Origin: a virus
Lineage: Duplodnaviria > Caudoviricetes
Direction: 5' to 3' (one strand)
DNA length: 60,351 nt
Virus record (IMG/VR): IMGVR_UViG_3300048833_000402
Coordinates: 1-60,351 of that record
Of this stretch, positions 13,608 through 34,592 are shown piece by piece. Made by a program: the position numbers and the translations under genes. The notes under the pieces are model-generated. The model did no database searches. It had not been told where the DNA came from and saw nothing but the letters and a program-made list of their open reading frames with translations. Every line of letters starts with the position of its first letter. The stretch's first letter is position 1.

Positions 13608-14702
13608 TCAAGCGACCTTGACGAAAGCCTTCCCGTCCAAATAGGCGTCGACGTGGTTCCTTAGGGTCCGGCCGACGTACTCGCCCAGCGGCACCGGTAC
13701 AGCGTTGCCAATAAGCCGCCCGATCCGAGCAAAGCTCGGTCGGTCCTCTGCTGCGAGGAATGAGTAGTCGGCCGGGAAGCCCTGGAGCATCGCCGCCTCG
13801 CGCAGCGTTATGGCCCTGTCCTGCTCAGGGTGTCCGAAGCGACCGTTCCCGTACCCAAAGCACTGGGTCGTGATCGTCGGGCCGGGCTGGTCCCACTCCA
13901 TCCTACCGTAGACGGCGGGGTAGGTGGCGCCGGTCGAGCGCCGGTGGCACTTGGCCCGGAGTTCGTCCGGCCAGTCCCGCCAGGTGCCGCCCGGCTTAGA
14001 GGCGCGGATGCGCTGGAGGTTGGTCGCACTCAGCCTGCTCGCCACGTGCAGGGGGTCCGAGGGGTCCGCCTCTCCCGCCGCGACGGGGCGGAGGGAGCCG
14101 ATGGCCTGGCGCACCGTCGTGGTCCTCCCGGCGTCGGGCGCCGGGAGCTCGATCGGACCCAGCCTCGACGCGACCAGCACCAAGCGCTTGCGGGTCTGCG
14201 GCAGGCCGACGTCGCGGACGTCCACGATCCGGTGGTCGATGCTGTACCCGTCGAGACAGCGCAGGAACTCGGCGAACACCGGCTGGTCTAGCAGCGGGGG
14301 CACGTTCTCCATCGTGACCAAGTCCGGCTGCAGGGCCTTGACCAGCTCGCCGAACCTTCGCACCAGCCTCCAGTCGTCACGGCTCCCCCGTCCCTTGCGC
14401 TTCCCTTCGCCCTGCCGGGCGGCGGAGCGCGAGTAGGTAGAGAATGGCTGGCAGGGTGCGCAGCCTGCGAGGAGCGTGACGCGCCCGCCCTGCAGGGTGT
14501 CTGCGATCGCCGATGCGTCGAGGCAGTCGACGTCGGCGAGGAGGAACGCTGCGTTGTTGTTGGCAGAGAAGGGGTGCTCGCAGCTCGGGTCGACGTCGAC
14601 CCCCAGGCGGACGTCGATGCCAGCAAGCTCAAGCCCGTGTGTCAGGCCGCCCGCCCCGCAGAAGAGGTCGACTGCTACGATGGTCTTGTCGGTGCTAATC
14701 AT
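13608..14702 (-). CDS. DNA (cytosine-5)-methyltransferase
   Basis: VDLFCGAGG (I), GCAPCQPFS (IV), MENV (VI), PQTRKR (VIII), IGNAVP (X); ATG 14702 overlaps the HEPN gene stop. Confidence 0.93.
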   Translation of the reverse strand: MISTDKTIVAVDLFCGAGGLTHGLELAGIDVRLGVDVDPSCEHPFSANNNAAFLLADVDCLDASAIADTLQGGRVTLLAGCAPCQPFSTYSRSAARQGEGKRKGRGSRDDWRLVRRFGELVKALQPDLVTMENVPPLLDQPVFAEFLRCLDGYSIDHRIVDVRDVGLPQTRKRLVLVASRLGPIELPAPDAGRTTTVRQAIGSLRPVAAGEADPSDPLHVASRLSATNLQRIRASKPGGTWRDWPDELRAKCHRRSTGATYPAVYGRMEWDQPGPTITTQCFGYGNGRFGHPEQDRAITLREAAMLQGFPADYSFLAAEDRPSFARIGRLIGNAVPVPLGEYVGRTLRNHVDAYLDGKAFVKVA

Positions 14703-15412
14703 GGGGCCTTCGGGTGGAGGAAGCCCTTCGCCACAATGTATTGATCGAAGGACGTAACTACCTCCAGCATATAGGCTACCACGGGATCGCGCAACTCCGC
14801 AAGTCGGGTCGCCGGAAGGTGTTGAGCCCCCGACAGGAAGGACTCGTTGCCATGCGCGAGGCGGTTGCGCTTGTGCCTGAGGTACTTCATCGGCGGCATC
14901 CCGTCCTCGAAGACGCTCTCGCAGGCCGCGACCCGGACCGGCTCGGCCACCGTCAGCGGGCAGGACAGGGAGGCTGCGAGCTGAACCACCTCCTCGTGCG
15001 ACCAGTTGCCCGACCGGCGCCTGATGCTCAGCTTGGTCATGGCCATGCGGTCGATCGCCTCCTGGACGAGGCCGACGAAGCGCGTCTCCGCGTCGTGGAC
15101 GGACAGATCTCGCGAGAGATTGACCCTTCCGAGGGCCCACTCGCGGATGAGGCCGTCGCACCACTCCTTGGGCGTGTGGACCTTGGCCGCGATCGCAACC
15201 TCCTCCAGCACCTTCTCCATAACCGCCTCGACCACGTTGTAGAGGTGAACGAGGAACCCACTCTTCAGGATGTTGACCGGCTCGGAGTCGACCGGCGCGG
15301 TGCGGACTCCCGTCCCCCGACCCACCGCAGACGCCTCCAGTCCCGAGATGAACCCGAGGTGGGTCTCTATCTCGACGATGCGTTCGCGGAGTATATCGCC
15401 GAATTCGCTCAA
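14699..15412 (-). CDS. HEPN-domain nuclease, MAE_28990/MAE_18760-like
   Basis: ILKSGFLVHLYNVVE helix and Rx4H motif KRNRLAHGNESF. Confidence 0.8.
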   Translation of the reverse strand: MSEFGDILRERIVEIETHLGFISGLEASAVGRGTGVRTAPVDSEPVNILKSGFLVHLYNVVEAVMEKVLEEVAIAAKVHTPKEWCDGLIREWALGRVNLSRDLSVHDAETRFVGLVQEAIDRMAMTKLSIRRRSGNWSHEEVVQLAASLSCPLTVAEPVRVAACESVFEDGMPPMKYLRHKRNRLAHGNESFLSGAQHLPATRLAELRDPVVAYMLEVVTSFDQYIVAKGFLHPKAP

Positions 15413-16515
15413 GGCGCGAGCCGCTCATACACGAAGCGAACCCTCGCCAGCAGCTTGGACTTGACGTTGGCCGCGTCGGAGGTCGTGACCTCGGCGAAGT
15501 CGGCGTCGTCGGCCCAGGCCGCAACATCGTCCCGCGTCGCCGACAACGGGCCAAAGTCCCGCAAGGCTAGCGCTGTGCCGACCGCGATCGCCTCAAAGCG
15601 CACGCGTGGAATCTGCTTACCCGTCGCGGTCTTCCTAAAGCCGTTGGGGAACAGCCGCTCGACCTCCGCCAGCATGGCGTCGAACTCGGCCCTCAAACGC
15701 GGCAGGTAGTGGGGGTCGTTCGTGGCGCGCTCATTCGCTTCACGGACAAAGTCCCAAATGTAGTCGCGCGGGCGATCCCGCCATCCCGGAAGGTCCATCG
15801 CGCCGTCCGCCAGCGTGAACTTCTCGAGATATGTGAAGAACCGGACGACGAGCTCCTCCCGCTCCCTCTCGCTGACCTGCTTCGCGCCGATCGGGGTCGC
15901 CGTCACGAAACGCTCGTCCTTTGAACATTCGACAACGAGGTCCATGAACGGACCGGGAAGTGAACCACGGCGAATCTCGGCCTCGTTCAGGTGGGTGCCG
16001 CCGGTATTGATGCGGTTGAACATCTCGGTCCGCGTTGCCTCGTCTACCAGGTTGTCGAGGACGATCCCGCGGATCGACCGTGCCGAGATCTTCCGCTGCC
16101 TGCTACGTTCGAGGTCGTCCACGTAGAAGCCGTTCAGCTCCGGGAGCTGCTGCAGCTTTTGCAGCTTGAGGTCGCCGTCGAGGAACCGGACCATCGTCCG
16201 AAGCCGCTGCGATCCGTCCACTATCTCAAGTCGGCCGTCGTCCGCCTGCCAGAGGAAGAGGAAGGGGATCGGGAGGCCCATCAGCAGGGACTCAATGAAC
16301 CGCGACTGCTTGTCGTCGGGCCAGACCAACTCCCGTTGATATGGGGGGACGTAGTATTCATCCTGTCGAACCTTGTCGGCCAGGAACTCGACCGTGTACT
16401 CAGTTACAAGGTACTTTATCGCCATCTCCAGCTTGGCGATCGCTGCCTCTCCTGCCGTTCTCTGAGCCTCAGTTGCTCTCGTGCGTTTGGTCGTCCGCGC
16501 CATTTGCTTCGCCAA
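15409..16515 (-). CDS. DUF262 (ParB/GmrS-like) domain protein
   Basis: PPYQRELVW, FIESLLMGLPIP, IVDGSQRLRT, MFNRINTGG..L...EIR; alternative start ATG 16503. Confidence 0.9.
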   Translation of the reverse strand: MAKQMARTTKRTRATEAQRTAGEAAIAKLEMAIKYLVTEYTVEFLADKVRQDEYYVPPYQRELVWPDDKQSRFIESLLMGLPIPFLFLWQADDGRLEIVDGSQRLRTMVRFLDGDLKLQKLQQLPELNGFYVDDLERSRQRKISARSIRGIVLDNLVDEATRTEMFNRINTGGTHLNEAEIRRGSLPGPFMDLVVECSKDERFVTATPIGAKQVSEREREELVVRFFTYLEKFTLADGAMDLPGWRDRPRDYIWDFVREANERATNDPHYLPRLRAEFDAMLAEVERLFPNGFRKTATGKQIPRVRFEAIAVGTALALRDFGPLSATRDDVAAWADDADFAEVTTSDAANVKSKLLARVRFVYERLAP

Positions 16516-19831: not shown

Positions 19832-20223
19832 TGCGCCGCGGCACCCCCGAGGCCGATCTGCAGCGCGCCGTCGTGCAGGCGCTGCGCATCGCCCTGCCCC
19901 GCAGCGCTATCATCCACCATTGCGCCAACGAGGTGACCGAGGCCGGACCTCGCGGAGCGAAGCGCCAGGCGATCCTTGTCGGCATGGGCGTCCATGCCGG
20001 GTTCGCTGATCTGATGGTGATTTGCGATGCCCGCGTACTGTTCCTCGAACTGAAGGCGCCGAAGGGGCGATTGCGACCGGAACAGGAGGCGTTTCGCGAC
20101 GCGGTGAAGGCACAGGGTTTCGGCTGGGCACTGGTGCGCAGCCTCGACGATGCGCTGGGCGCGCTGGCAGATCACGGCTTCACGACACGGATCGCCCCTG
20201 CCCCACGGAGGCCTGCGCCATGA
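19828..20223 (+). CDS. VRR-NUC domain nuclease (resolvase-like)
   Basis: EADLQRAV, GVHAGFADL, FLELKAPKGRLRPEQ, VRSLDDA (PD-(D/E)XK pattern). Confidence 0.85.
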   Translation: MMRRGTPEADLQRAVVQALRIALPRSAIIHHCANEVTEAGPRGAKRQAILVGMGVHAGFADLMVICDARVLFLELKAPKGRLRPEQEAFRDAVKAQGFGWALVRSLDDALGALADHGFTTRIAPAPRRPAP

Positions 20224-21170
20224 GCCACCGTGCGACCGTCTGGGCCATCCAGCAACGCGGGTTGAAACCCGCAACCAAGATCGTGCTGTGGTTCCTGTGC
20301 GACCGGCACAACCCGGACTTCGGCTGCTTCCCGACTCAGGCGCGGCTGGCTGAGGACGCCGAGATGTCGATCTCGGCGCTGAACGAGCATCTCGCCGTGC
20401 TAGAACGGGCTGGCCTCATACGCCGCCTGCGCAGCCATGATCCGCGCACCCACCGCCGTCAGGCCACGCGCTACATCTTGAGGTTCGAAGAAGGCTTTGC
20501 ACAAGAGCCAACTCCGGAAACCGGAGACGGCTTCGAAGGCACGGAAGGTGAACAGGAAGATGACCCAACTCCGGAATCCGGACGCGGAGCCATCTCCGGA
20601 TTTTCGGCCGAGCCATCTCCGGATTTTGCCGAAAGCCATCTCCGGAATCCGGAGACTAACCTTGTAAGAGAACCCCTAAGAGAACCTGTAAAGGAGGAGG
20701 CGGGCGCGCAGGCACGCGCGGCGATTTCCGATGAGGTTTTCGGGGAGCTGCTCACCGCGCTGGGCCTCGACCCCGCCGCCCTGCCCGGTTGGTGGCAGGG
20801 CTGGCCGCCCCGGCTGCACGTCCAGCGCTGGCGCGACGAACTTGGGCTAACCGAGGCGGAAATCATCGCTACGGCCGAGGCCAGCCGCCAGGAGCACCCC
20901 GAACCGCCCGATGGGCCGAAGGCGCTGGACCGGGCGATGCAGCGTGCAGCAGGGCGCAAGGTCGACGATGCGGGCCGAAAGCGCCGGAAACTCAAGGCGC
21001 CCCCTGCCCCGGCTGCGAAGCCGATCACCGACCTCCCCGCCTTCTATGCCGATCTGGTCAACTCCGACCGCTACCTGCCGGTCAGCGCAATCAGCAACAC
21101 GATGCGCGACGCCATGCTGGCGCGGGGATTGGTCACGGCCGAACGCCTGCGCGAGCGAGGTGTTCGATGA
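20220..21170 (+). CDS. Phage replication initiator (N-terminal HTH, lambda O-like organisation)
   Basis: KIVLWFLCDRHN...CFPTQARLAEDAEMS...LERAGLI wHTH; internal iterons. Confidence 0.8.
   Translation: MSHRATVWAIQQRGLKPATKIVLWFLCDRHNPDFGCFPTQARLAEDAEMSISALNEHLAVLERAGLIRRLRSHDPRTHRRQATRYILRFEEGFAQEPTPETGDGFEGTEGEQEDDPTPESGRGAISGFSAEPSPDFAESHLRNPETNLVREPLREPVKEEAGAQARAAISDEVFGELLTALGLDPAALPGWWQGWPPRLHVQRWRDELGLTEAEIIATAEASRQEHPEPPDGPKALDRAMQRAAGRKVDDAGRKRRKLKAPPAPAAKPITDLPAFYADLVNSDRYLPVSAISNTMRDAMLARGLVTAERLRERGVR
20505..20655 (+). repeat. Iteron array / replication origin inside the initiator gene
   Basis: Five copies of RA(G/C)CCAWCTCCGGA at 20505, 20562, 20587, 20610 and 20633; the last three are 23 bp apart. 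Confidence 0.75.
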
Positions 21171-21835: not shown

Positions 21836-22082
21836 CGGCTTTGCCAAACGATCTGGTGTCTGACCCGGACCCGGGCATGTCTCGGCGGGTCGGGCAACTC
21901 CGAACCGAAGACGAGGTCGTTTTCGAACCGTTCTGTTAATGTACCAATGATAGAACATCATGATCGCGGACCTTGCGGCGACGCTCAACCCATCGACAGC
22001 GAAGGCTGCCTAGCATAGCATCAGCTGATGGCTTGATCCCAAGGCCCAGGATATTGTGGCGACAAGCGAGCAGGAAACATTC

Positions 22083-23156
22083 ATGGAACACTCCGAAGCA
22101 CCCTTCAAGTTCATCGATTTGTTCGCTGGAATCGGGGGCCTCCGGCGTGGCTTCGACGCAATTGGTGGACAATGCGTCTTCACCTGCGAGATGAACAAGT
22201 ATTCTCAAGAGACCTATCGCGCCAACTTTGGAAGCGACCATGAAATCGCCGGTGACATCACGCAGGTTGCCGCATCGGACATTCCTGAACATGATCTGCT
22301 TCTAGCCGGATTTCCTTGCCAGCCGTTCTCTTTGGCTGGCGTCAGCAAGAAGAACTCGCTCGGTCGAGCTCATGGGTTCGCGGACGAGACACAGGGGACC
22401 CTGTTCTTCGACGTCGTCCGGATCTTGCGCCATCACCAGCCCCGGGCCTTCTTGCTCGAGAACGTCAAGAACCTGTTGAGCCACGACAAAGGCAACACCA
22501 TGCGGGTCATCCTGCATGCATTGGACGAACTCGGGTACGAGGTCGACTACCGGGTGATCGATGCGCGTTCTTGGGTACCGCAGCATCGTGAACGAATTTT
22601 CATTTCCGGGTTCCGCAGGGACTACAAGACGACCTTCTCCTTCGATGACGTGTTAGTCCCGCCAGGGCCCAACCCCACGCTATCATCGATCCTCCACCCC
22701 GAGGACGGGTCGGAGGCTGCAGACGGGCGTTACACGACCGGCAGCTTCGGCAAGGTCAACGAACGTTACACGCTGACTGATGGCCTCTGGTCGTACCTGC
22801 AGCGGTATGCCGAGAAGCATCGCAGTGCAGGCAACGGGTTCGGATTCGGGCTGGTCGGCCCAGAGAACGTGGCTCGCACTCTCAGCGCACGGTATCACAA
22901 GGATGGGTCTGAAATCTTGGTCAAGCAGTCTGGAAAGAACCCACGCCGTCTGACGCCGCGGGAATGCGCGCGTCTCATGGGCTTCGACCGTCCCGGCTCC
23001 AACGACCCTTGGAAGATCCCGGTAAGTGACACCCAAGCATATCGGCAGTTCGGCAACGCCGTTGCGGCACCCGTTTCGGTTGCGATCGCCGAAGCAATGG
23101 CTCCATGGTTGACCAACACGGTTGCCCTCCGGTCGCGAAGGGAACGCGTTGGCTGA
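22083..23156 (+). CDS. dcm: Dcm/M.EcoRII-like cytosine-5 methyltransferase (predicted CCWGG)
   Basis: FIDLFAGIGG, LAGFPCQPFSLAGVSKKNSLGRAHGF..TQGTLFFDV, ENVKNL.SHDKG.T, ARTLSARY.KDG.EIL, VSDTQAYRQFGN: motifs essentially as in E. coli Dcm. Confidence 0.93.
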   Translation: MEHSEAPFKFIDLFAGIGGLRRGFDAIGGQCVFTCEMNKYSQETYRANFGSDHEIAGDITQVAASDIPEHDLLLAGFPCQPFSLAGVSKKNSLGRAHGFADETQGTLFFDVVRILRHHQPRAFLLENVKNLLSHDKGNTMRVILHALDELGYEVDYRVIDARSWVPQHRERIFISGFRRDYKTTFSFDDVLVPPGPNPTLSSILHPEDGSEAADGRYTTGSFGKVNERYTLTDGLWSYLQRYAEKHRSAGNGFGFGLVGPENVARTLSARYHKDGSEILVKQSGKNPRRLTPRECARLMGFDRPGSNDPWKIPVSDTQAYRQFGNAVAAPVSVAIAEAMAPWLTNTVALRSRRERVG

Positions 23157-23658
23157 CAACAAGGCGCCCCTGACAAGATCACAGATGATGGCGCGTGTCC
23201 GTTCGGCGGATACCAAGCCGGAACTGGTCCTGCGCAAGGCCCTTCACGCCATCGGCTTCCGGTTCAGGTTGCACGTCCGTTCCCTCCCGGGTTGTCCGGA
23301 CATCGTCATGCGGAAGCACAGGTGCGCTATCTTCGTCAACGGCTGCTTTTGGCACGGTCACGCTGACTGCAAGCATTTTCGTATTCCCAAGACCCGGCCA
23401 GAATTCTGGGCCGCAAAGATCGGAGCCAACCGGGAGCGGGACGCACGCGCAATCGAGGCTCTGCTGAGCGGCGGCTGGCGCGTTCTCGTTGTTTGGGAAT
23501 GTGCGACGCGGTCGTTCCAGGTGGACAATTTGATCGGCATCATCGCCGTATGGTTGCAGGGCACTGAAACAAGTGCAGAATTGTCATCGGATGGCCTGTC
23601 GAGCGACAGCCGAGTCAGGCCCGGAATTTCATCCGGCGAGCAGGAAACAGGTAGATGA
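23149..23658 (+). CDS. vsr: Very-short-patch repair endonuclease
   Basis: RSQMMARVRSADTKPE, LPGCPDIV, FVNGCFWHGH, PKTRPEFW..KI..N..RD, VWEC; TTG start overlapping the dcm stop. Confidence 0.93.
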   Translation: MADNKAPLTRSQMMARVRSADTKPELVLRKALHAIGFRFRLHVRSLPGCPDIVMRKHRCAIFVNGCFWHGHADCKHFRIPKTRPEFWAAKIGANRERDARAIEALLSGGWRVLVVWECATRSFQVDNLIGIIAVWLQGTETSAELSSDGLSSDSRVRPGISSGEQETGR

Positions 23659-25283
23659 ACGACCTTATCAACGACCCGAACGCCTCGCGGCTGATTTATG
23701 GCCTGCGCGACACCGGCTACAACGTAAAGACCGCGGCTGCGGACATCATCGACAACTCGATCGCGGCGGGCGCAGAGAACATCAACATCGAGATCCAGCT
23801 CCTGCATGACGGACGGAAGGTCGTCTATTTCGGCGACGACGGTCACGGGATGAACCATGAGGAAGTTCGGAACGCCATGCGGTACGGCGCGGACAGGCGC
23901 CCCGACGCAAAGAGCCTTGGAAAATTCGGCCTGGGCCTCAAGACCGCCTCCAGCTCGGTTTGCAAGCGCTACAGCGTGATCTCTCGGCGGTCTGAGGACC
24001 AACCCTTGGCGAAGCTTACATGGGACCTGGAGCACGTCGAACAGCGCAACGTCTGGGAAATGCTGGCCGAGCCGGTGACGGCGGATCAGAACGAGATGTT
24101 CGACGAGTATTGCGGTCCGACCGGCACGCTTGTCATTTGGGAAAATTGCGACCGGTTGCTGTCAAAGGAATACACGCCGGGCACCAAGGAACAGGCAGCT
24201 GTCAAGCGGATGTCCGAGGCCCTGAGCAAGCACCTCTCCCTCGTCTTCCACCGATTCCTTGATGTAAATGACAGCCGGGAACGGAACGTGGTGATCCGGA
24301 TCAACGGAACTCCGGTGAAGCCATGGAACCCGTTCTATCCCGAACGTTCCGAACAAGTGCTTGCTCCGAACAAACAGAAAGTGGTCGTCGAACTCTTCGA
24401 TGGGAGCGAAGAAGTCGCTGAAATGAAGGCGTGGATCCTTCCGCACCGCCGCGACATGACCAAGGAGGAGGAGGCCGAGTTCGCGCGGATTTCGAACAGG
24501 GCGCAAGGCTTCTATGTCTATCGCGAGGGCCGCCTGATCCAGGATGGTGGCTGGATGGATGTGTTCGGTGCACCTGAACCGCACACCTCGCTTCTCAGAA
24601 TCGAGTTCGACTTCGGCCACCAGTTGGACGAGGCTTTCCGGATAGATGTGAAGAAGTCACGGATCCTGTTCCATCCGGATCTTGAGGACGGCCTGCGCAA
24701 ACTGCTTCAACCGGTCTATCGCGAAGCTGGTGCTCGCTATCGCCGCGAAAGCCGAGACGATGCCAACCAAAAGAAGACCGTCGACCACAGCAGCGCGAAC
24801 AAGAATATTGCGGGCACGCCAAATACCACGAAACCCCAAGTAACTGCTGCGGACGTACGCACCCAAACAGCCGAAATCAGCAACAACCGCGGCCCGAAGA
24901 TCAGGATCAAGGCGCCAGTCCAGAATTTCGTCAGCCCTGACAGCATTCACGTCGAAGCGGTGACCACAATCACAAATGGCCATCTGTGGGAACCCGCCTA
25001 CCGCAGCGCGGGCAGCGCCGACCATGTGCCCGGCGTTCAGCTCAACAAGCACCATGACTTCTATCAGAAGATATACCAGCGCGCCGCCGCCAACGGCTAC
25101 GCGGTCGAGGGGATGGACCTTCTGCTCTACGCTTTCGCCATGGCCGAGCAGAACAACACCGATCCCGAACTCGAACCCGTCTTCGAGGATATCCGCGAAG
25201 AAATTTCGGCCAACCTTCGCAAGTTGCTGCGGCACATGCCGGATCCCGAACCCGCAGAACTGACCGAGGACGACGAGGAGTGA
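23655..25283 (+). CDS. GHKL/MORC-type (MutL-like) ATPase
   Basis: LRDTGY...AAADIIDNS (N box), DDGHGM (G1), LGKFGLGLKTAS (G2), TGTLVIW (G3), QGFYVYREGRLI, RIDVKKS. Confidence 0.88.
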   Translation: MNDLINDPNASRLIYGLRDTGYNVKTAAADIIDNSIAAGAENINIEIQLLHDGRKVVYFGDDGHGMNHEEVRNAMRYGADRRPDAKSLGKFGLGLKTASSSVCKRYSVISRRSEDQPLAKLTWDLEHVEQRNVWEMLAEPVTADQNEMFDEYCGPTGTLVIWENCDRLLSKEYTPGTKEQAAVKRMSEALSKHLSLVFHRFLDVNDSRERNVVIRINGTPVKPWNPFYPERSEQVLAPNKQKVVVELFDGSEEVAEMKAWILPHRRDMTKEEEAEFARISNRAQGFYVYREGRLIQDGGWMDVFGAPEPHTSLLRIEFDFGHQLDEAFRIDVKKSRILFHPDLEDGLRKLLQPVYREAGARYRRESRDDANQKKTVDHSSANKNIAGTPNTTKPQVTAADVRTQTAEISNNRGPKIRIKAPVQNFVSPDSIHVEAVTTITNGHLWEPAYRSAGSADHVPGVQLNKHHDFYQKIYQRAAANGYAVEGMDLLLYAFAMAEQNNTDPELEPVFEDIREEISANLRKLLRHMPDPEPAELTEDDEE

Positions 25284-25284
25284 G

Positions 25285-26118
25285 ATGATCTCCGATCGGA
25301 AAGACATCATCCGAATGGAGCTGGAGGCGGGAACCGGGGCCGCGATCGGCATGGCGGTCGACCAAAGCGGGACCAGGACTGGTCTGCGCCTCTGGTTCGC
25401 CGATCTGGACGAGCGCCACGGCCCCGTGGCGGAGCTGCGTCCCTACGGGATCCGGGGATATCGCGTGGCGCTTGGCTTCGGGAAGTTTGCGGGTGAAGTT
25501 GTCCGCCAGATACAGGCCGCAGGCGCAGAAGACGTCGGGTTGGCACGCGCCTTGGTGGCGTCGATCAGCCCAGCGGTGGATCTCCAAGTATCTGGCCACG
25601 GCAGGGATGATTGGTATGTGGATTCCGGAGCTTTCAAGATCACAGCAACAGCCCGAGGATTGCCAGACGATCAGGACGAAGCCGTTGCCAAAATCTGCCG
25701 AGATGTAGTCGTGCCGTTGCTGGCCGCCATGGCGGAACTTATCGGTTATGATGTCATCGAGGAGGAGGACGATGACCGTGCGCACGCCTATGAGGGCGCA
25801 ATCCTAATCTCGACAATCCGGCGACGCGAACGAAACCCGCGAAACCGCCTGCTCTGCATCCGGCTGCATGGCGAGAAATGCGCGTGCTGCGGCATAGAGC
25901 CGAGGTCAGTCTATGGTGAAGCAGGAAGCATCATCGAAGTTCATCATCTCGAGGCCCTGTCCCTTCTGGCCGTGCCCCGCGCATACGATCCGGCGATCGA
26001 TCTGGCACCGCTCTGTCCTAACTGCCACCGCGCCGTGCATACGAGACGCCCGATACCCTTCTCCCTTTCGGAATTGCAGGCGCTCATGTCACCGCACGTA
26101 GACCAGGCGGCCATCTGA
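25285..26118 (+). CDS. HNH endonuclease (McrA-like C-terminal domain) with an uncharacterised N-terminal domain
   Basis: EG...RRERNP..R..CI..HG..CACCG...IEVHHL...DLAPLCPNCHRAVH. Confidence 0.85.
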   Translation: MISDRKDIIRMELEAGTGAAIGMAVDQSGTRTGLRLWFADLDERHGPVAELRPYGIRGYRVALGFGKFAGEVVRQIQAAGAEDVGLARALVASISPAVDLQVSGHGRDDWYVDSGAFKITATARGLPDDQDEAVAKICRDVVVPLLAAMAELIGYDVIEEEDDDRAHAYEGAILISTIRRRERNPRNRLLCIRLHGEKCACCGIEPRSVYGEAGSIIEVHHLEALSLLAVPRAYDPAIDLAPLCPNCHRAVHTRRPIPFSLSELQALMSPHVDQAAI

Positions 26119-27938
26119 TGAACAACCTTGCCGCCCTGCCTCCAGATTTTGACACTCTGCTCGCAAAGGTTCCTGAAGGATTTTCAGTCTCAGAGCGGGT
26201 TATCGAACCGGTAGCGATCCTCTCCCGAGTATCCGGGAAGATGTCCGTGGCGCTGGGCGGCAAGCGAACGGTTCGGGGAGAAGTTCGGCTGATCGAGGCG
26301 CCATCCATTTCCCATGCTTGGATAGCGGACGGCGCAATCTTGCGTCCCTTGCCCAAGGACGCTCCAGGCTTGGTCGCAAAATGCCTTGGTGACGAAGCCC
26401 CGAACGACATTTCATATGCTACGGCTATCAGACTGCTGCGATCGCCGCCCGAGGGCCTCGAAATCGAGGCTGCACCCGATATCTTGCACTCGGGCAAGAT
26501 AGCCGCTGAGGAATTGCCGCCCGAGATCGACATCCCTGGCCTACAGGCCGACCTCTTCCCCTACCAGGCACGAGGCGTCCGATGGATGTGGGAAACGGTC
26601 AATAAGACTGCCGGTTTGATCCTTGCGGACGAGATGGGCCTCGGCAAAACGCTTCAGATCATCGCACTCCTGCTGATGGATCCACCCGAGAACGCCGCAC
26701 CGGCCCTTATCGTTTGTCCGACCAGCCTCATCGCGAATTGGGTGCGCGAGTTCGGCAAGTTCGCCCCCAGCCTCTCGCTGATGGTTCACAGGGGAGCCCA
26801 TCGTGCCGGAATCTATCGTGACCTGCAGGTCGCATCTGTGGTGATCACCACCTACGAGACGATGGTGAACGACATCTCGATCTTCTCGTCCTTTGAATGG
26901 GCATGGGTGATCTGTGACGAGGCTCAGGCCATCAAGAACCCCCACTCCAACCGTCGGCAGGCAATTGTGACGATCCCTCGCCGCAAGTCGATACCGATGA
27001 CCGGCACCCCGGTCGAGAATACCCTGATGGATCTGTGGTCGTTAGCCGATTTCGCAATCCCGGGCATGCTTGGGGACAGAACCGTCTTCGAAGTCGAGTT
27101 CCCTGACACGCTGGAGGCCGGACAGGCGCTGGGCCGCTTGACCGATCCAATCATCCTGAAAAGGCGAGTGCGTGATGTCGCCGCCGACCTTCCGGATCGC
27201 ATCGACATCGATCTGCCGTTGGAACTCGATGATGGTCTGGCCCGGCATTACGACGACGTCCGCGAAGCTACGCTGGAAAAGTACCCGGTCGCGGGCGCGC
27301 TCGTCGCTACCCTGCAGCTTCAGCTGGTCTGTGCGCATCCTTGGCTCAGGATTCCCGACGCTGCGACGGTCGACTGGGACGAAGCCAAGATCGTTACCCG
27401 TGAGGACATTCCGCTGCTTACGCCGAAGCTCGACCGAACTGTCGAACTTCTACGGGAGGCATTTGCGACCGGCCGGAAAGTCATCGTCTTTGCCCTGTTC
27501 AACCGGATCGGCGACCTGATCCGGACTGCCTGCAGGGATTTCGCCAAAACCTATTGGGGGGCGATCAACGGCTCGACCCCGCAGGAGGACCGCCAGACCA
27601 TCATCGACGAATTCTCCGCCCACGATGGGGCCGCGTGCCTAATCTTGAATCCGAAGGCGGCGGGGGCGGGGCTGAACATCACCGCGGCGACCGTCGTTAT
27701 CCATTTCACACCGGTCTGGAACCCCGCCCTCGAAGCTCAGGCGAGCGCCAGGGCGCATCGGCGTGGCCAAACCGATCCGGTCACTGTCTATCGCCTTTTC
27801 TACAAGGACACGGTGGAGGAGGTGATGATCGAACGCTCCGCCTGGAAGAGCGACCTTGCCAACGAAACCGTCCCGGTTTCCAGCCGGGACGCGGACGACC
27901 TGAGGCGCGCCCTCACCATCAGCCCGGTAAAGCCATGA
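26118..27938 (+). CDS. SNF2/SWI2-family helicase/translocase
   Basis: LFPYQ, LADEMGLGKT, VCPTSLIANW, DEAQAIKN, TGTPVEN, GAGLNIT, WNPALEAQASARAHRRGQ. Confidence 0.92.
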   Translation: MNNLAALPPDFDTLLAKVPEGFSVSERVIEPVAILSRVSGKMSVALGGKRTVRGEVRLIEAPSISHAWIADGAILRPLPKDAPGLVAKCLGDEAPNDISYATAIRLLRSPPEGLEIEAAPDILHSGKIAAEELPPEIDIPGLQADLFPYQARGVRWMWETVNKTAGLILADEMGLGKTLQIIALLLMDPPENAAPALIVCPTSLIANWVREFGKFAPSLSLMVHRGAHRAGIYRDLQVASVVITTYETMVNDISIFSSFEWAWVICDEAQAIKNPHSNRRQAIVTIPRRKSIPMTGTPVENTLMDLWSLADFAIPGMLGDRTVFEVEFPDTLEAGQALGRLTDPIILKRRVRDVAADLPDRIDIDLPLELDDGLARHYDDVREATLEKYPVAGALVATLQLQLVCAHPWLRIPDAATVDWDEAKIVTREDIPLLTPKLDRTVELLREAFATGRKVIVFALFNRIGDLIRTACRDFAKTYWGAINGSTPQEDRQTIIDEFSAHDGAACLILNPKAAGAGLNITAATVVIHFTPVWNPALEAQASARAHRRGQTDPVTVYRLFYKDTVEEVMIERSAWKSDLANETVPVSSRDADDLRRALTISPVKP

Positions 27939-28375
27939 CGACCAAAACCTTCATCAAGACTCTCAGCGCCAATGACGTCGGAACGACAGGCGGCCACATG
28001 GGGGGCATTCTCGTTCCGAAGGGCGATGGCGAACTTCTCGCCTTCTTGCCCAAGCTTGATCCGGCAACCTTGAACCCTTCGGCGTGGATCGACTGCGAAA
28101 CGCCAAGCGGTCAAGTTCTGCGCCTTCGCTTCGTGTACTACAACAACCGAATGCATGTGCCAAATGGCACACGAAACGAATATCGGATCACCTATCTGAC
28201 AAAGTTCCTCAGGGAGGAAATGGCCAACGCGGGCGATACATTCGAGATTTCGAAGGCGGACGGGGCGGCGCGTTACAAAATCAGGGTGATCCCGATTGGC
28301 GGCAGTTCCGACGCCTCAGACGATGACGCCCCTGTCAGGATCAGACTGACGACCGGTTGGCGGCGGGTCCACTGA
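27935..28375 (+). CDS. Stand-alone EcoRII N-terminal (B3-like) DNA-binding domain protein
   Basis: FIKTLSANDVGTTGGH...LNPS...VYYNN...TRNEYRIT matches the EcoRII-N pattern (KRLSANDTGATGGH...NPS...YYNS...TRNEKRIT); 146 aa; no catalytic domain. Confidence 0.82.
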   Translation: MTTKTFIKTLSANDVGTTGGHMGGILVPKGDGELLAFLPKLDPATLNPSAWIDCETPSGQVLRLRFVYYNNRMHVPNGTRNEYRITYLTKFLREEMANAGDTFEISKADGAARYKIRVIPIGGSSDASDDDAPVRIRLTTGWRRVH

Positions 28376-28508
28376 ATGAAGCGTCCATCGCGGTCATCGT
28401 CGAGAGAAGGTTCCAAGGGCGACCGGGGACGATTGTCAACGCGTCGTCCTTTGTGCACACCGAAGGGCGACGGCGTGTATCACACTACGGTGTCGCTGCA
28501 GCCCCATT

Positions 28509-30623
28509 TCAATGGGACCGCACTTTGCCGGAGATCCTGATTCTGGGCGTCTCCTCATCGTCGACGTAGCCCTCTTCGCGCGCACGGCCGAGGATTTCGA
28601 CTGCGAGTATGCATTGCCGCTCGGACGGCAAGCGGCGCTCCTGCTGGCTGCAGGCCTTCAGAATACCGTCATCCTTCATCGAGAATGAGCGGCTGGAAGC
28701 GGTCCATTCGCGCAGCCTTCCCCAGAAGGCGCTGCCGAGCAAAATCACCTTTGACTGTGCCTCGATCCCGGAAATCATCGCCTCTTCGCGGCGACCATCA
28801 CGTTCGGCCGCTTTGGCTTCCTGAGGCTCTATAAGGAAGTCCTCAAGTCCGCCATCGTAGTCAACCTCGGTTCGTGCGACAGAAGACCAGCATCCCTGTT
28901 TCTTCGCCCACTCTGAAATGTTGCGGATGCCGCTGTCCGTTGCGGTGATCACGTCGGCCGCGGCCTCGCAGGCGATGAGGAAGCATTGCATCAACGCTTC
29001 CGGAACGGACTGCTCATTCCAGACCCGATCAAGATCCAGAACCTTCCCGCCCTCTTCGACGTCATGGACCAGCTTGGCAATACCGTAGGTTACGATGTTG
29101 GCCCGATAACCGCCCGGGTACCACTCTTGTCGAGGGACAGCCTTCTCGAGGGCACGGAAAATGATCACCTTCGCGATGAGGCGTTTGAACCAGGTCTCGT
29201 CATACTTTCTGTCACTGGCCGCCCACGCTTCTCCAATCTCCGATGCGAAGGCTGCGAAATTCTTCTGCGCCCCTTTGCTCACAGTGTCCGGTTTCATCCG
29301 GAACGAAAGCTCGACCTTGGCAAGATCCGTCTTGGCGAATAGCTGCGCCTTCGGATGTTCGGAGTCGAAACGCTTCCGATCGGCCCCTCCCAGCTTCGCC
29401 TGCTCCACTTGGTACTGTCCCCGCGCCCTTTCATAGAACCATTTGGTCTGCCGGTTCATGCCCGGCGCTGGAGGCGCGGAAACACGGCGCGAGTATCCTT
29501 CCATCCGCATGTGGAATGGGTGGTTCGAGAAGAAATCGGCGGCACTGACCTTGTTTTGGCTGTTCGCATACTTCGAGATGTTCGGCACGACTTGCTCGGA
29601 ACTTTCGGAAGGCACCACCGTCAGTTTGATCTGGACATGGACTCGGTCCAGGTTCTCGGGGCTGTGCTTCAATGCGGCATGCAGCGAAGCGGTCGTCTGG
29701 CCACCGTTGACGATCTGTAGGTTTTTCGCCGAAAGGATGCGGACACCTGCCCCGTCCATCTCGATGTCGACAGCGTCTGCGGTCGCGGACAGCCCATTGT
29801 TGTAGCTGAAGAACATCTCGGGTTCGCCCTTGATGGTGTCCCGGATCCCTTCGTTGACCGATTTGCGGCGCGCCTGAATGAAACTGCGGATGTTCGACTC
29901 CAGCAGTCTCGCGCCCCACTTGTCATAAATGTCAGCCAGCTGTTTGCCACGGATGACAGCCAGATAGGATGGCAGTTGCGACTCCGGACCGGAAGCTCGA
30001 AGGGCTGGAAGGCCTCCGCCGAAGTCTTCGGCAAACTTGACGACGATCTTTTCCTTGGAGCCGGTGGTTTCAACCCTGTGCAGACGGGTCAAATCCCAGA
30101 TGTTGTAGGTCACGGGGATATCGGAAATGCTGCCAGCAACGACGGCATCTGTCCGGGCGCTGTAGATCGCGTTCGTGACAAGGATCAGTTTGATCTTGGT
30201 CACGGATGGCCATGACTCTGCGATCATCGTGGCAACGCCGAATTCAGGTGACTCGATGTGCAATTGGTCCCGAAACTCCCGCCGCCGTGCGGCTGCGACG
30301 AAATTGATCAAGTGGCCAAAGTGCTTTTTGGCGTCGGCTGCGTTCAAAGTCGGCGGCTGTTCGTCGTCGAAGACTTCGCAGACTATGACGCTGAGGATGC
30401 CATCTGTTTCTCTAGGGTCACCCCCATGGCCATCGATCCGAAGGGACTTTCCGGAAGCAGACCCTCGAAAAGCACATCTGTCGGACGTCTCGATCTCGCC
30501 TTCGGCTTCCAGAGTTTCGCATAGCCGTTCGAATGCGACGTCCTCGAGCGGCAGATCAGTTTCCGCACACTCTTCCCTCAGTTCGGCAACTAGGTCTTGG
30601 TTGAATTCGACAAGCTGGTTCAA
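28509..30623 (-). CDS. AIPR-family (abortive infection phage resistance) protein
   Basis: LLESNIRSF, VNEGIRDTI..EPEMFFSYNNGL, QIVNGGQTT, ISKYANSQNKV..ADFFSNHPFH, WFYERARGQY; TTG 30623 with GGAG RBS. Confidence 0.9.
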   Translation of the reverse strand: MNQLVEFNQDLVAELREECAETDLPLEDVAFERLCETLEAEGEIETSDRCAFRGSASGKSLRIDGHGGDPRETDGILSVIVCEVFDDEQPPTLNAADAKKHFGHLINFVAAARRREFRDQLHIESPEFGVATMIAESWPSVTKIKLILVTNAIYSARTDAVVAGSISDIPVTYNIWDLTRLHRVETTGSKEKIVVKFAEDFGGGLPALRASGPESQLPSYLAVIRGKQLADIYDKWGARLLESNIRSFIQARRKSVNEGIRDTIKGEPEMFFSYNNGLSATADAVDIEMDGAGVRILSAKNLQIVNGGQTTASLHAALKHSPENLDRVHVQIKLTVVPSESSEQVVPNISKYANSQNKVSAADFFSNHPFHMRMEGYSRRVSAPPAPGMNRQTKWFYERARGQYQVEQAKLGGADRKRFDSEHPKAQLFAKTDLAKVELSFRMKPDTVSKGAQKNFAAFASEIGEAWAASDRKYDETWFKRLIAKVIIFRALEKAVPRQEWYPGGYRANIVTYGIAKLVHDVEEGGKVLDLDRVWNEQSVPEALMQCFLIACEAAADVITATDSGIRNISEWAKKQGCWSSVARTEVDYDGGLEDFLIEPQEAKAAERDGRREEAMISGIEAQSKVILLGSAFWGRLREWTASSRSFSMKDDGILKACSQQERRLPSERQCILAVEILGRAREEGYVDDEETPRIRISGKVRSH

Positions 30624-30792
30624 ACTGGGCTCCGAAGCGCAAGGCACAGTAAAGGCGGAGGTTCTTCCGCCACACACCACAGTAGCCTACGCGCGGAGGT
30701 CAAGCCGACGCAATGCTGTTTCCCCTTGGAGCCGTGTCCTTCAGATCGTGCTGATCTTGGGTCTTTTCAGGAACGACAGCGCCCCCTCCTCT

Positions 30793-31081: not shown

Positions 31082-31702
31082 TCAGGCTCGCCCGGTTTCC
31101 TTGTCCAGCAGGCCCTGCAACATCGCGAGGCGATCCGCGCTGAAGTCGCCCGCCTGCGGCGTCAGCCACCGCATGGCGCGTACGAAGAACTGACGGAAGT
31201 CCTCGCGCTCCTCGCACCAGGCCAGCAGCTTCACCCCCTGCGGCGGATGCACTAGCGCAAGCGGCAGGACCGTCCGCGCGGTTTCGTTCCCCGACAGGTC
31301 GGTGTAGCCGAAGGCCACCGGTTGGCTGGTTCGGATCGCCGCGTGCAGCATGGCGAGGTCGGCGGCGGCCGCCTCCGGCATGTCCTCGGGCCAGTATTGC
31401 GCCGGGCGCACGTCGAGAAGCTGGTAGAGCCTGGCGAGGATCGCACCCTCGGGGTCGGTCTGCGACAGCCGCTCGATGGCGGCATCCGCGGCGGCGGCGG
31501 TGACGGGGTCGCCGCGATGGCCCGCGAGCGCCAGGCCACGCAGGGCCGCGTCACGCAGATCGGGGTCGAGGACCGGCGCCGGGTTCGCCATCGTGCTGGC
31601 CGCAGCGCCATTCCCGAAGCCGATCGCAGCGGCGGCACCGGCAATCCGGGTGCCCAGCGCACGGCGTGTCAGGGTCAGGGGCTTGGTGCGACCGGGTCGC
31701 AT
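31082..31702 (-). CDS. WYL-domain protein lacking an HTH, with a twin-arginine-like leader
   Basis: LHAAIR.SQPVAFGYTD.SG.ET.RTVLPLAL...LLAWCEEREDFRQF; GAGGAGG RBS before ATG 31702. Confidence 0.8.
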   Translation of the reverse strand: MRPGRTKPLTLTRRALGTRIAGAAAAIGFGNGAAASTMANPAPVLDPDLRDAALRGLALAGHRGDPVTAAAADAAIERLSQTDPEGAILARLYQLLDVRPAQYWPEDMPEAAAADLAMLHAAIRTSQPVAFGYTDLSGNETARTVLPLALVHPPQGVKLLAWCEEREDFRQFFVRAMRWLTPQAGDFSADRLAMLQGLLDKETGRA

Positions 31703-32004: not shown

Positions 32005-33267
32005 ATGGACCTCGTCTTCGCGCCGAGCCAGATCGAAACCTGGCCGATTGCCCGGCTGCGCCCCTATGCCCGCAATGCCAAGGTGCATGGCGACGACCAG
32101 GTGGCGAAGATCGCCGCCAGCATGGCCAAGTTCGGCTGGACCGTTCCCTGCATGGTGGCCGACGATGGCGAGTTGATCGCGGGACATGGCCGGGTGCTGG
32201 CTGCGACGATGCTCGGGCTGACCGAAGTGCCGGTGATCCGGCTCAGCCATCTCGACGAGGCGGAGCGCCGCGCCTACCGGATCGCGGACAACAAGCTGAC
32301 GGAACTGGGCGAATGGGACGAAGCCCTGCTGCGCGACGAGATCGCGGGGCTGCTGGCGGAGGATATTGACCTGACCCTGCTCGGCATCAGTGACGATGAC
32401 CTCGACGCGCTGCTGCGGGATCCGGAGGCGCTGGGCGGAGATGGCCCGGTCGAGGGCGAAGACGATGTGCCCGAGTTGCCGGTCACACCGGTGTCGGTGC
32501 CGGGCGATCTGTGGCAGCTGGGTTCCCACCGGCTGATCTGCGGCGACAGCACATCCGCCGATGTCGTCGGGCACCTGCTCGGCGATGTGCGCCCGCTCCT
32601 GATGGTGACCGACCCGCCTTACGGGGTCGAATACGATCCCTCCTGGCGGAACCAGGCTGGGGCAGCGAAGACCAAGCGCACCGGCAAGGTGCTGAACGAC
32701 GACCGTGCCGATTGGCGCGAGGCTTGGGCCCTGTTCCCCGGCGATGTCGCCTATGTCTGGCACGGTGCCCTGCACGCGGGGACGGTGGCCGACGGCCTGC
32801 TCGCCGCGGGTTTCGCCATCCGGTCGCAGATCATCTGGGCCAAGGATCGGCTGGTCCTCAGCCGCGGCGACTATCACTGGCAGCACGAACCCTGCTGGTA
32901 CGCGGTGCGCGCCAAGGGCAAGGGCCACTGGGCGGGCGACCGCAAGCAGACGACGCTGTGGCAGATCGCCAACCGGGATCAGGACGCCGACACAGTCCAC
33001 GGCACCCAGAAGCCGGTCGAATGCATGCGGCGGCCGATCCTGAACAACTCAAGCCCCGGTCAGGCGGTCTACGAGCCCTTCATGGGATCCGGCACGACGT
33101 TGATCGCGGCGGAGACGACGGGGCGGGTCTGCTTCGGGGTCGAGTTGAACCCGACCTATGTCGACGTCGCCATCGAACGTTGGCAGTCGTTCACCGGCGA
33201 AGAGGCCCTGCTGGCGGAAACTGGTGAGACCTTCGCCGCCCTGAAAGCCAAGCGGCTGGCAGCATGA
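32005..33267 (+). CDS. ParB-like domain + beta-class amino-methyltransferase (DPPY, probably m6A)
   Basis: LRPYARNA..H...IAGHGRV..YRIADNKL; VTDPPY; HGTQKPV; YEPFMGSGTT. Confidence 0.88.
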   Translation: MDLVFAPSQIETWPIARLRPYARNAKVHGDDQVAKIAASMAKFGWTVPCMVADDGELIAGHGRVLAATMLGLTEVPVIRLSHLDEAERRAYRIADNKLTELGEWDEALLRDEIAGLLAEDIDLTLLGISDDDLDALLRDPEALGGDGPVEGEDDVPELPVTPVSVPGDLWQLGSHRLICGDSTSADVVGHLLGDVRPLLMVTDPPYGVEYDPSWRNQAGAAKTKRTGKVLNDDRADWREAWALFPGDVAYVWHGALHAGTVADGLLAAGFAIRSQIIWAKDRLVLSRGDYHWQHEPCWYAVRAKGKGHWAGDRKQTTLWQIANRDQDADTVHGTQKPVECMRRPILNNSSPGQAVYEPFMGSGTTLIAAETTGRVCFGVELNPTYVDVAIERWQSFTGEEALLAETGETFAALKAKRLAA

Positions 33268-34592
33268 ACGCGCCCCTCCTGCCCGGCCGGATTGAACACT
33301 GGCCCCTCGCCCGCCTCCGCCCCTACGCCCGCAACGCCAAGACCCATGACGCCGACCAGGTAGCGAAGATCGCCGCCAGCATGGCCGAGTTCGGCTGGAC
33401 CGTTCCCTGCCTCGTCGCGGGTGACGGCGAACTGATCGCGGGTCACGGCCGCGTCCTGGCCGCAGCCCAGCTCGGGCTGGCGGAGGCGCCCGTGATCGTG
33501 CTGGGCCATCTGACCGAGGCGCAGCGCCGGGCCTACCGCATCGCCGACAACAAGCTGACCGAACTCGGCGGGTGGAACGAGGCGCTGCTGCTCGAGGAAC
33601 TGCGGGACCTGATGGCCGAGGATTTCGACCTCGGGCTGATCGGGATCCCCGACGACGAGCTGGACGCCCTGCTGCACGATGCCGACAACCGTGCGCCCAT
33701 CGACGATGACGCCGCCGACACCATCCCCGAGGCCCCGGCCGAGCCGATCACCCGTCCCGGCGACATCTGGCGGCTCGGGCATCACCGGCTGATCTGCGGC
33801 GATGCGACCGATCCGGCCGTGGTGGCGCGGCTGATGGGTGGGGCGCAGGCTTCACTGATGTTCACCTCGCCGCCCTACGCCCAGCAGCGCGACTATGGTG
33901 CGGCGAAGGAAAAGGTCGGCGATTGGGATGCGCTGATGCAGGGCGTCTTCGCCGCGGCGCCCCTCACCACCGATGCGCAGCTGCTGGTCAACCTCGGCCT
34001 CGTCCATCGCGACGGCGAGTGGATCCCGTATTGGGAAGGCTGGGTTGACTGGATGCGCGCGCAGGGCTGGCGACGCTTCGGCTGGTATGTCTGGGACCAG
34101 GGGCCCGGCCTGCCCGGCGACTGGAACGGCCGCCTGGCCCCGTCGCACGAGTTCATCTTCCACTTCAACCGCCAGCCCCGCAAACCGAACAAGACGGTCG
34201 AGAGCAAGCACGCAGGCGAGACCCTCGGCGGCGGCGGGTTGCGCGGGGCCGACGGCACGGTCCATCGCAAGACCGGTTACGGCAACGCGATCCAGAGCCA
34301 CCGCATCCCGGATAGCGTCTTCCGCATCATGCGCCACAAGGGCGGGCTGGGCGCCGCCGGATCGCACCCGGCTGTCTTCCCGGTGGCACTGGTCGAGGCT
34401 GTGCTGGAGGCCTTCACCGATCCTGGCGACCTGGTGTTCGAACCCTTCTGCGGCTCCGGTACGCAGCTGATCGCCGCGGAACGCACCGGGCGGCGCTGCT
34501 GCGCTGTGGAACTGGACCCGGTCTACTGCGATGTCGCCGTGCGGCGCTGGCAGATGACTACCGGAAGGAGAGCCTACCCCATCGGGGCTTGA
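33264..34592 (+). CDS. ParB-like domain + beta-class amino-methyltransferase (SPPY, probably m4C)
   Basis: Paralogous ParB N-terminus; FTSPPY; HPAVFP; FEPFCGSGT. Confidence 0.88.
   Translation: MNAPLLPGRIEHWPLARLRPYARNAKTHDADQVAKIAASMAEFGWTVPCLVAGDGELIAGHGRVLAAAQLGLAEAPVIVLGHLTEAQRRAYRIADNKLTELGGWNEALLLEELRDLMAEDFDLGLIGIPDDELDALLHDADNRAPIDDDAADTIPEAPAEPITRPGDIWRLGHHRLICGDATDPAVVARLMGGAQASLMFTSPPYAQQRDYGAAKEKVGDWDALMQGVFAAAPLTTDAQLLVNLGLVHRDGEWIPYWEGWVDWMRAQGWRRFGWYVWDQGPGLPGDWNGRLAPSHEFIFHFNRQPRKPNKTVESKHAGETLGGGGLRGADGTVHRKTGYGNAIQSHRIPDSVFRIMRHKGGLGAAGSHPAVFPVALVEAVLEAFTDPGDLVFEPFCGSGTQLIAAERTGRRCCAVELDPVYCDVAVRRWQMTTGRRAYPIGA

Follow-up and report, generated by a model that had tools for sequence, protein, structure and literature searches.

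The closest described relatives of the genes analysed here belong to the second group of prokaryotic MORC operons delineated by Iyer, Abhiman and Aravind (2008, Biol Direct 3:8; PMC2292703). In the text of that paper, operons of this group encode a SWI2/SNF2 helicase and often HNH or EcoRII-like nucleases, in some cases a VP1/RAV (B3) DNA-binding protein and frequently cytosine methylases and Vsr, and the legend to its Figure 2 lists AIPR among the common products of restriction-modification (R-M) operons; the work, as its text presents it, is comparative genomics only. Here, we describe a seven-gene cassette in the phage record IMGVR_UViG_3300048833_000402 (Duplodnaviria; Caudoviricetes), a complete virus record of 60,351 bases that was analysed over its whole length (the window). 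Matched on that text description, the gene content places the cassette among the SWI2/SNF2-class prokaryotic MORC R-M operons predicted in 2008, and we consider it likely that it acts as a prophage-carried, ATP-dependent R-M-type defence system of the SWI2/SNF2-class MORC kind with specificity for CCWGG. Seven intact open reading frames (ORFs) lie within 22083-30680:

22083-23156, + strand: C5 cytosine methyltransferase, Dcm-like (Pfam DNA_methylase, 1e-82)
23149-23658, + strand: Vsr very-short-patch repair endonuclease (Pfam Vsr, 1e-29; TTG start; 8-nucleotide (nt) overlap with the Dcm-like gene)
23655-25283, + strand: MORC-family GHKL+S5 ATPase (Pfam HATPase_c_3, 2e-27; ATGA overlap with the Vsr gene)
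25285-26118, + strand: HNH nuclease (Pfam HNH, 4e-4; 1-nt gap after the MORC gene)
26118-27938, + strand: SWI2/SNF2 ATPase (SNF2-rel_dom, 9e-57; Helicase_C, 4e-16; 1-nt overlap with the HNH gene)
27935-28375, + strand: free-standing EcoRII-N-like B3 protein of 146 amino acids (Pfam EcoRII-N, 4e-15; ATGA overlap with the SNF2 gene)
28509-30680, - strand: AIPR-family protein, convergent (AIPR, 1e-98; AIPR_N, 8e-35)
22044-30650: mobile seven-gene cassette, approximate limits (taken from where DNA similarity to the copies L001-L004 ends)

The six same-strand genes follow one another with overlaps of 8, 4, 1 and 4 nt and a single 1-nt gap, the stop codons of the EcoRII-N and AIPR genes are 133 nt apart, and the cassette, 8.6 kb long, has a GC content of 0.57-0.62 across 22-31 kb versus 0.66-0.69 in the flanks. 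Six coupled genes facing an AIPR gene in a lower-GC block had been proposed, together with the domain assignments, in an initial annotation made from the DNA letters and ORF translations. The ORFs, junctions and GC values agree with it and Pfam, along with PADLOC and NCBIfam, supports each domain, the Pfam HNH match scoring 21.0 bits, just under the 21.4 cut-off, with eight Cys and His residues (C199, C202, H220, H221, C244, C247, H248 and H252) invariant in 57 sequences. The same annotation had offered the gene set as a candidate new defence system and named a match to an already described system as what would count against this; such a match is what we find in the text of Iyer et al. (2008; PMC2292703), and the claim of novelty is not supported. 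What our analysis adds to the 2008 description is two gene orders, SNF2-B3 and MORC-HNH pairs, CCWGG contact residues, a seven-gene cassette with a convergent AIPR gene and a phage hotspot.

The assignment rests on the following features. The MORC ATPase has the GHKL motifs I-III (DIIDNS with N33, DDGHG at 61 and GKFGLG at 89) and an S5 motif, GFYVYREGRLI at residue 285, that fits the signature GhXhhpXXRhl by which the text of Iyer et al. (2008; PMC2292703) defines MORCs; its only sequence matches in the PDB are to human MORC2 (E 1e-5). The SWI2/SNF2 protein shows GLGKT at 174, QASARAHRRGQ (QxxxRxxRxGQ) at 541 and a D267-E268-A269 triad that is invariant in 16 sequences, while its N-terminal ~135 residues have no domain match and lack conservation from one gene order to the other. 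The HNH gene product, which has 56 representatives at E<1e-30, combines a nuclease domain (residues ~170-270) with a family-specific N-terminal domain (~1-160). Its AlphaFold2 model, with a mean predicted local distance difference test score (pLDDT) of 87.9, renders the N-terminal ~160 residues as a confidently modelled α/β domain, for whose fold there was no match at E<=0.001 in the PDB or BFVD and nothing useful in the protein atlas (top score 0.79). With HNH and B3 proteins, a cytosine methylase and Vsr, and AIPR as the R-M neighbour, the set agrees with the 2008 operons component by component.

Using the HNH protein alone as anchor, we fetched 87 loci, namely 5 from species genomes, 11 regions (drawn from the 18 partial hits among 401 sampled alphaproteobacterial genomes) and 71 viral contigs. 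Some of these are redundant: L005 is almost the same as L039, L141 and L154 are the contigs of L039 and L041, respectively, and L044 resembles L045. MORC, SNF2 and HNH genes occur together in 17 of the 87 loci, at 27-99% identity; a further 69 loci have the HNH-domain match only, and L047 is another partial case at a contig end. Within the 17, a B3 gene is present in 16 (it was not found in L030), a Dcm-like gene in 16 (L041, the exception, is truncated where its contig ends); Vsr occurs in 15 of them and AIPR in 8. This recurrence indicates that the arrangement is more than chance, and the conserved synteny that the initial annotation had proposed as a check is thus present. Close and complete copies are found in the cultured strains Rhodobacter capsulatus DSM 1710 and Roseinatronobacter bogoriensis DSM 18756.

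Two gene orders can be distinguished. The order MORC-HNH-SNF2-B3 is found in the window and nine other loci (48-99% protein identity) and the order SNF2-B3-MORC-HNH in eight loci (27-46% identity); in both, SNF2 immediately precedes B3 and MORC immediately precedes HNH, and the stop codon of one gene usually overlaps the start codon of the next. Since the two orders are a permutation of the same SNF2-B3 and MORC-HNH pairs, we propose that the proteins may form two corresponding sub-complexes. Two loci show other arrangements. The cassette copy at L041:1-1470 opens, where the contig ends, with part of HNH/MORC duplicated in inverted orientation, which is a rearrangement or an assembly artefact, and around 9471-11875 of L035 (G157:C3) an HNH-domain gene adjoins Vsr and a distant C5 methylase, without MORC, SNF2 or B3, in what looks like a simpler Dcm-Vsr-HNH arrangement.

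The specificity of the cassette can be approached from both the methylase and the B3 protein. A single alignment of the methylase with E. coli Dcm, at 51% identity, spans both the catalytic and the variable (target-recognition) regions. Residues 3-352 of the methylase align to PDB 3lx6/3me5 (E 1e-108), whereas the match to M.HhaI is confined to residues 8-183, the catalytic half; the best NCBIfam match is the Dcm subfamily PRK10458, at 429 bits and below the 710 cut-off. The methylase is thus probably specific for CCWGG. The Vsr protein scores 151 bits with TIGR00632, above the 97.85 cut-off, and is 43% identical to E. coli Vsr, and the 8-nt overlap between the two genes is also kept in relatives.

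The B3 protein matches PDB 3hqf, the EcoRII-N-DNA complex, by sequence (phmmer 2e-9), and its AlphaFold2 model (pLDDT 84.7) has 3hqf_A as best fold match, at 8.6e-6 over 144 columns. Stand-alone B3 proteins of similar size form 514 clusters, and the B3 domain was not found fused into longer proteins, a negative that is weak evidence. As described for EcoRII-N, the bases are read by Asn28, His36, Gln37, Tyr85, Arg94, Glu96 and Arg98 (Golovenko et al. 2009, PMC2770665). In an alignment of 26 free readers, the equivalents of N28, H36, Y85, R94, E96 and R98 are invariant in all, and the position equivalent to Gln37 (residue 22 of the window protein) is Met in 17, including the window, and Gln in 9. 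Six of the seven contact residues are therefore kept in the window protein and all seven in 9 of the 26 relatives; the Met/Gln split is not correlated with the presence of AIPR. According to the same study, C5 methylation of the inner cytosine in either strand abolishes binding by EcoRII-N, one clash being ascribed to Tyr85 (PMC2770665), and the equivalent of this tyrosine is kept in the window. Furthermore, L027 encodes a Vsr and a Dcm of 66% identity, next to which come a complete EcoRII (N and C domains) and, after it, SNF2, free B3, MORC and HNH. From the identity of the methylase to Dcm in the variable region, the B3 contact residues, the layout of L027 and the methyl-sensitivity of EcoRII-N, we infer that CCWGG is probably the target and that unmethylated sites are probably the signal. 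The idea of the initial annotation that a free CCWGG reader works alongside Dcm as the mark of self is accordingly plausible, and now better grounded. We rejected a methyl-directed (Type IV-like) reading of the locus because the B3 protein keeps Tyr85 and the other contacts that clash with 5-methylcytosine (5mC), and because the cassette encodes its own Dcm.

Several characterised systems share parts of this inventory. EcoRII (Type IIE) with M.EcoRII/Dcm resembles the cassette in its EcoRII-N-type B3 domain, with six of seven contacts conserved, its Dcm-like methylase and Vsr, but in the cassette the reader is a separate protein of 146 amino acids, an HNH protein supplies the nuclease and there are two ATPases in addition. 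The EcoRII-C PD-(D/E)XK domain (PF09019) is absent, by Pfam, from all seven proteins and present in L027. CglI and NgoAVII, as described, combine a C5 cytosine methylase, a B3 reader, a nuclease and an SF2 motor, and cleavage needs ATP (PMC4267653; PMC5861437). However, their B3 domain is fused to a PLD nuclease, their motor is DEAD-Z1, a GHKL ATPase is lacking and the target is GCCGC, so that by analogy the cassette appears to share the logic of these systems and not their defining architecture. In VcSduA (paraMORC3-type Shedu), a GHKL-nuclease protein for which defence is described as requiring both the ATPase and the nuclease (PMC12137116), a GHKL ATPase is likewise thought to control a nuclease; unlike the cassette, VcSduA consists of one polypeptide with a DUF4263 PD-(D/E)XK nuclease and lacks a methylase, SNF2 and B3. 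DISARM was rejected, as the DrmA/DrmB (DUF1998) core is not present and the only matches are to the generic models for SNF2 and methylase proteins (DrmD, DrmMII); no Drm model appears in the complete PADLOC lists of the other five proteins. Membership in Zorya or Dpd was rejected as well, only generic SNF2 and methylase models matching.

We picture the cassette as working in the following way. On the DNA of host and prophage, Dcm would methylate the inner C of CCWGG; the T:G mismatches that arise from deamination of 5mC would be repaired by Vsr. The free B3 protein would bind unmethylated CCWGG on incoming DNA and form, with the SNF2 ATPase, a reader-motor pair translocating on DNA, while a dimer of the MORC ATPase would serve as a clamp, gated by ATP, and license cutting by the adjacent HNH nuclease; AIPR would be an accessory layer gained by one clade. 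We suggest, tentatively, that this could amount to an uncharacterised mechanistic class of restriction, in which a methyl-sensitive reader-motor (B3 and SNF2) loads or licenses a clamp-nuclease (MORC dimer and HNH), with AIPR as an extra layer in one clade and the change from Gln to Met possibly retuning the reader. A complex prediction for SNF2 and B3 scored 0.00 against a mark of 0.32, which counts neither for nor against binding.

A number of observations weigh against a CCWGG-specific R-M system of this kind. In EcoRII-N, Gln37 is described as contacting the central base and a water at the methylatable cytosine (PMC2770665), and with Met at this position the CCWGG specificity or the methyl-sensing of the B3 protein may differ. 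The proposed protein contacts are deduced solely from which genes adjoin. In L042, L043 and L079, Dcm and Vsr run in divergent or convergent orientation relative to the module; L003 lacks Vsr, and no B3 gene was found in L030. The variable placement of Dcm and Vsr makes the methylase link looser than in a classic operon. In the whole window CCWGG occurs 145 times against about 256 expected, and since GGWCC is equally rare (153), this shortage says nothing specific and was dropped as evidence. Finally, no experimental study of the gene set was found in the literature searched, which left subscription journals largely outside, and a 2026 preprint, citing only the 2008 paper, still speaks of prokaryotic MORCs as proteins that 'have been proposed' to provide defence of the R-M type.

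In the phage genome, the cassette lies between a replication gene on one side and two ParB-methylase genes and the large terminase gene on the other, and the window also encodes a gene transfer agent (GTA)-type tail gene:

20022-21170: O-like replication gene, flanking the block on one side

DNA similarity to the chromosomal copies L001-L004 is limited to window positions 21849/22044-30609/30649, and in the related phage contigs L005, L039 and L040 the same block is inverted between the same phage backbone flanks. By these shared limits and the inversion, the seven genes, AIPR included, behave as one unit in this clade. No near-identical DNA was found in phage and plasmid collections. Promoter and terminator scans gave counts not above those of shuffled controls, with no terminator called in the convergent gap, and the small conserved ORFs that precede Dcm in L001, L002 and L004 were set aside as spurious, having no mutual homology. 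A survey of 80 related phage loci, fetched via the ParB-methylase, yielded 13 with both flank markers; between these the gap measures 0.6-9.6 kb and only one locus (L141) holds the cassette. The slot is a variable cargo hotspot of this phage group. The chromosomal copies of the cassette adjoin SIR2-like and AAA/S8 peptidase genes.

Such a hotspot could also hold a stack of independent cargo modules, in which an orphan Dcm-Vsr shields the phage genome from CCWGG-cutting hosts, MORC-HNH-SNF2-B3 is a methylation-blind defence and AIPR a separate abortive-infection gene. The further methylases and defence genes that this phage has as separate cargo would fit this, as would the absence of AIPR from all eight loci of the other order and from L042, and the varying orientation and position of Dcm and Vsr, with Vsr missing in L003. 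We nevertheless regard it as unlikely: in 16 of the 17 loci the module comes with a Dcm-like gene, the sole exception being cut by a contig end, the contact residues of the reader match the probable target of the methylase, and six genes are translationally coupled and seven invert and transfer as one block.

The AIPR gene raises the question of a relationship to Mza, whose composition (mzaABCDE) we took from PADLOC and NCBIfam model names and from the description in PMC9523054. The two systems are alike in a MORC/MutL-like ATPase and an AIPR protein, often near a C5 cytosine methylase and Vsr. PADLOC names the ATPase MzaB-like (7e-47) and the AIPR protein MzaE-like (1e-73); with the NCBIfam models they score 196 bits against a cut-off of 850 (MzaB) and 317 bits against 1050 (MzaE), and by these scores both proteins are homologous to MzaB and MzaE yet fall outside the curated families. 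The AIPR protein has no PDB relative. No MzaA, MzaC (Z1) or MzaD PADLOC model matched any of the seven proteins at E<=0.01, in agreement with the initial annotation, which had seen no Z1 protein; in L144, a sister phage, the same models do give hits. The lack of MzaA, MzaC and MzaD and the MzaB and MzaE scores far under the cut-offs led us to reject the cassette as Mza proper. AIPR is present in eight of the nine loci that share the gene order of the window and in none of the eight with the order SNF2-B3-MORC-HNH; in the latter eight and in L042 it was found neither by tblastn nor by Pfam on 10 flanking ORFs. Judged by this distribution, AIPR is a clade-specific accessory of the cassette.

A sister phage carries, in the same slot (L144:1-9468), Vsr, a C5 cytosine methylase and co-directional homologues of MzaB, MzaC, MzaD and MzaE, which suggests that Z1-type and SNF2-type MORC systems replace each other at one phage hotspot. 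This substitution, the PADLOC and NCBIfam names and the travelling of AIPR with the cassette in eight of nine loci would suit a variant of Mza in which the MORC-like ATPase and AIPR form the functional core, AIPR being the effector, and SNF2, B3 and HNH take the place of MzaC (the Z1 motor) and MzaD. Beyond the low scores and the missing components, however, the four-gene module occurs without AIPR in nine loci, and AIPR is convergent and optional here and co-directional in L144, which makes such a variant very unlikely. A dedicated repair or epigenetic-maintenance machine, in which the MutL-like MORC, Vsr, the motor and the nuclease process T:G mismatches or hemimethylated CCWGG, would draw on the parallel with MutL, Vsr/MutH and UvrD stressed in the text of Iyer et al. 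(2008; PMC2292703) and on the coupling of Vsr to the MORC gene in the window, but is the least probable of these explanations, the cassette being sporadic and mobile, lying in a phage cargo hotspot beside other defence genes and, in L027, next to a full EcoRII, with Vsr dispensable or displaced in several loci.

Other genes of the window deserve mention. A separate low-GC block at 9383-13064 (+) holds a Gabija pair, GajA (PDLC00086, E 3e-267) and GajB (PDLC00104, E 1e-225). At 13608-16515 (-) there is a second C5 cytosine methylase, of 648 amino acids and with an N-terminal stretch of ~290 residues lacking a domain assignment, followed by a DUF262/GmrSD_N protein with a match to PADLOC NsnA (E 3e-53); the two are possibly another modification-linked system. 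On the strand of AIPR and about 400 nt upstream of it, a WYL-domain protein of 206 amino acids is encoded at 31082-31702 (-). Its gene is absent from the cassette copies L001-L004 and L041; in L150, a copy with 80% identity immediately precedes the ParB-methylase, and the protein may regulate neighbouring cargo. The two ParB-like/DNA methylase fusion genes (phrog_498) are in tandem at 32005-34592 (+) with a 4-nt overlap, and the first recurs in at least 80 viral contigs at 79-96% identity (596 candidate matches).

Prokaryotic MORC operons are the presumed source of eukaryotic MORCs. On a practical matter, a compact and intact cassette with a probable site that can be probed in dcm+ and dcm- laboratory strains offers an entry point to the function of bacterial MORCs, and the SNF2-B3 and MORC-HNH pairs provide a concrete subunit hypothesis. 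If the proposed mechanism is true, the cassette would be a working bacterial prototype of the MORC, SNF2, B3 and 5mC toolkit of eukaryotic chromatin silencing.

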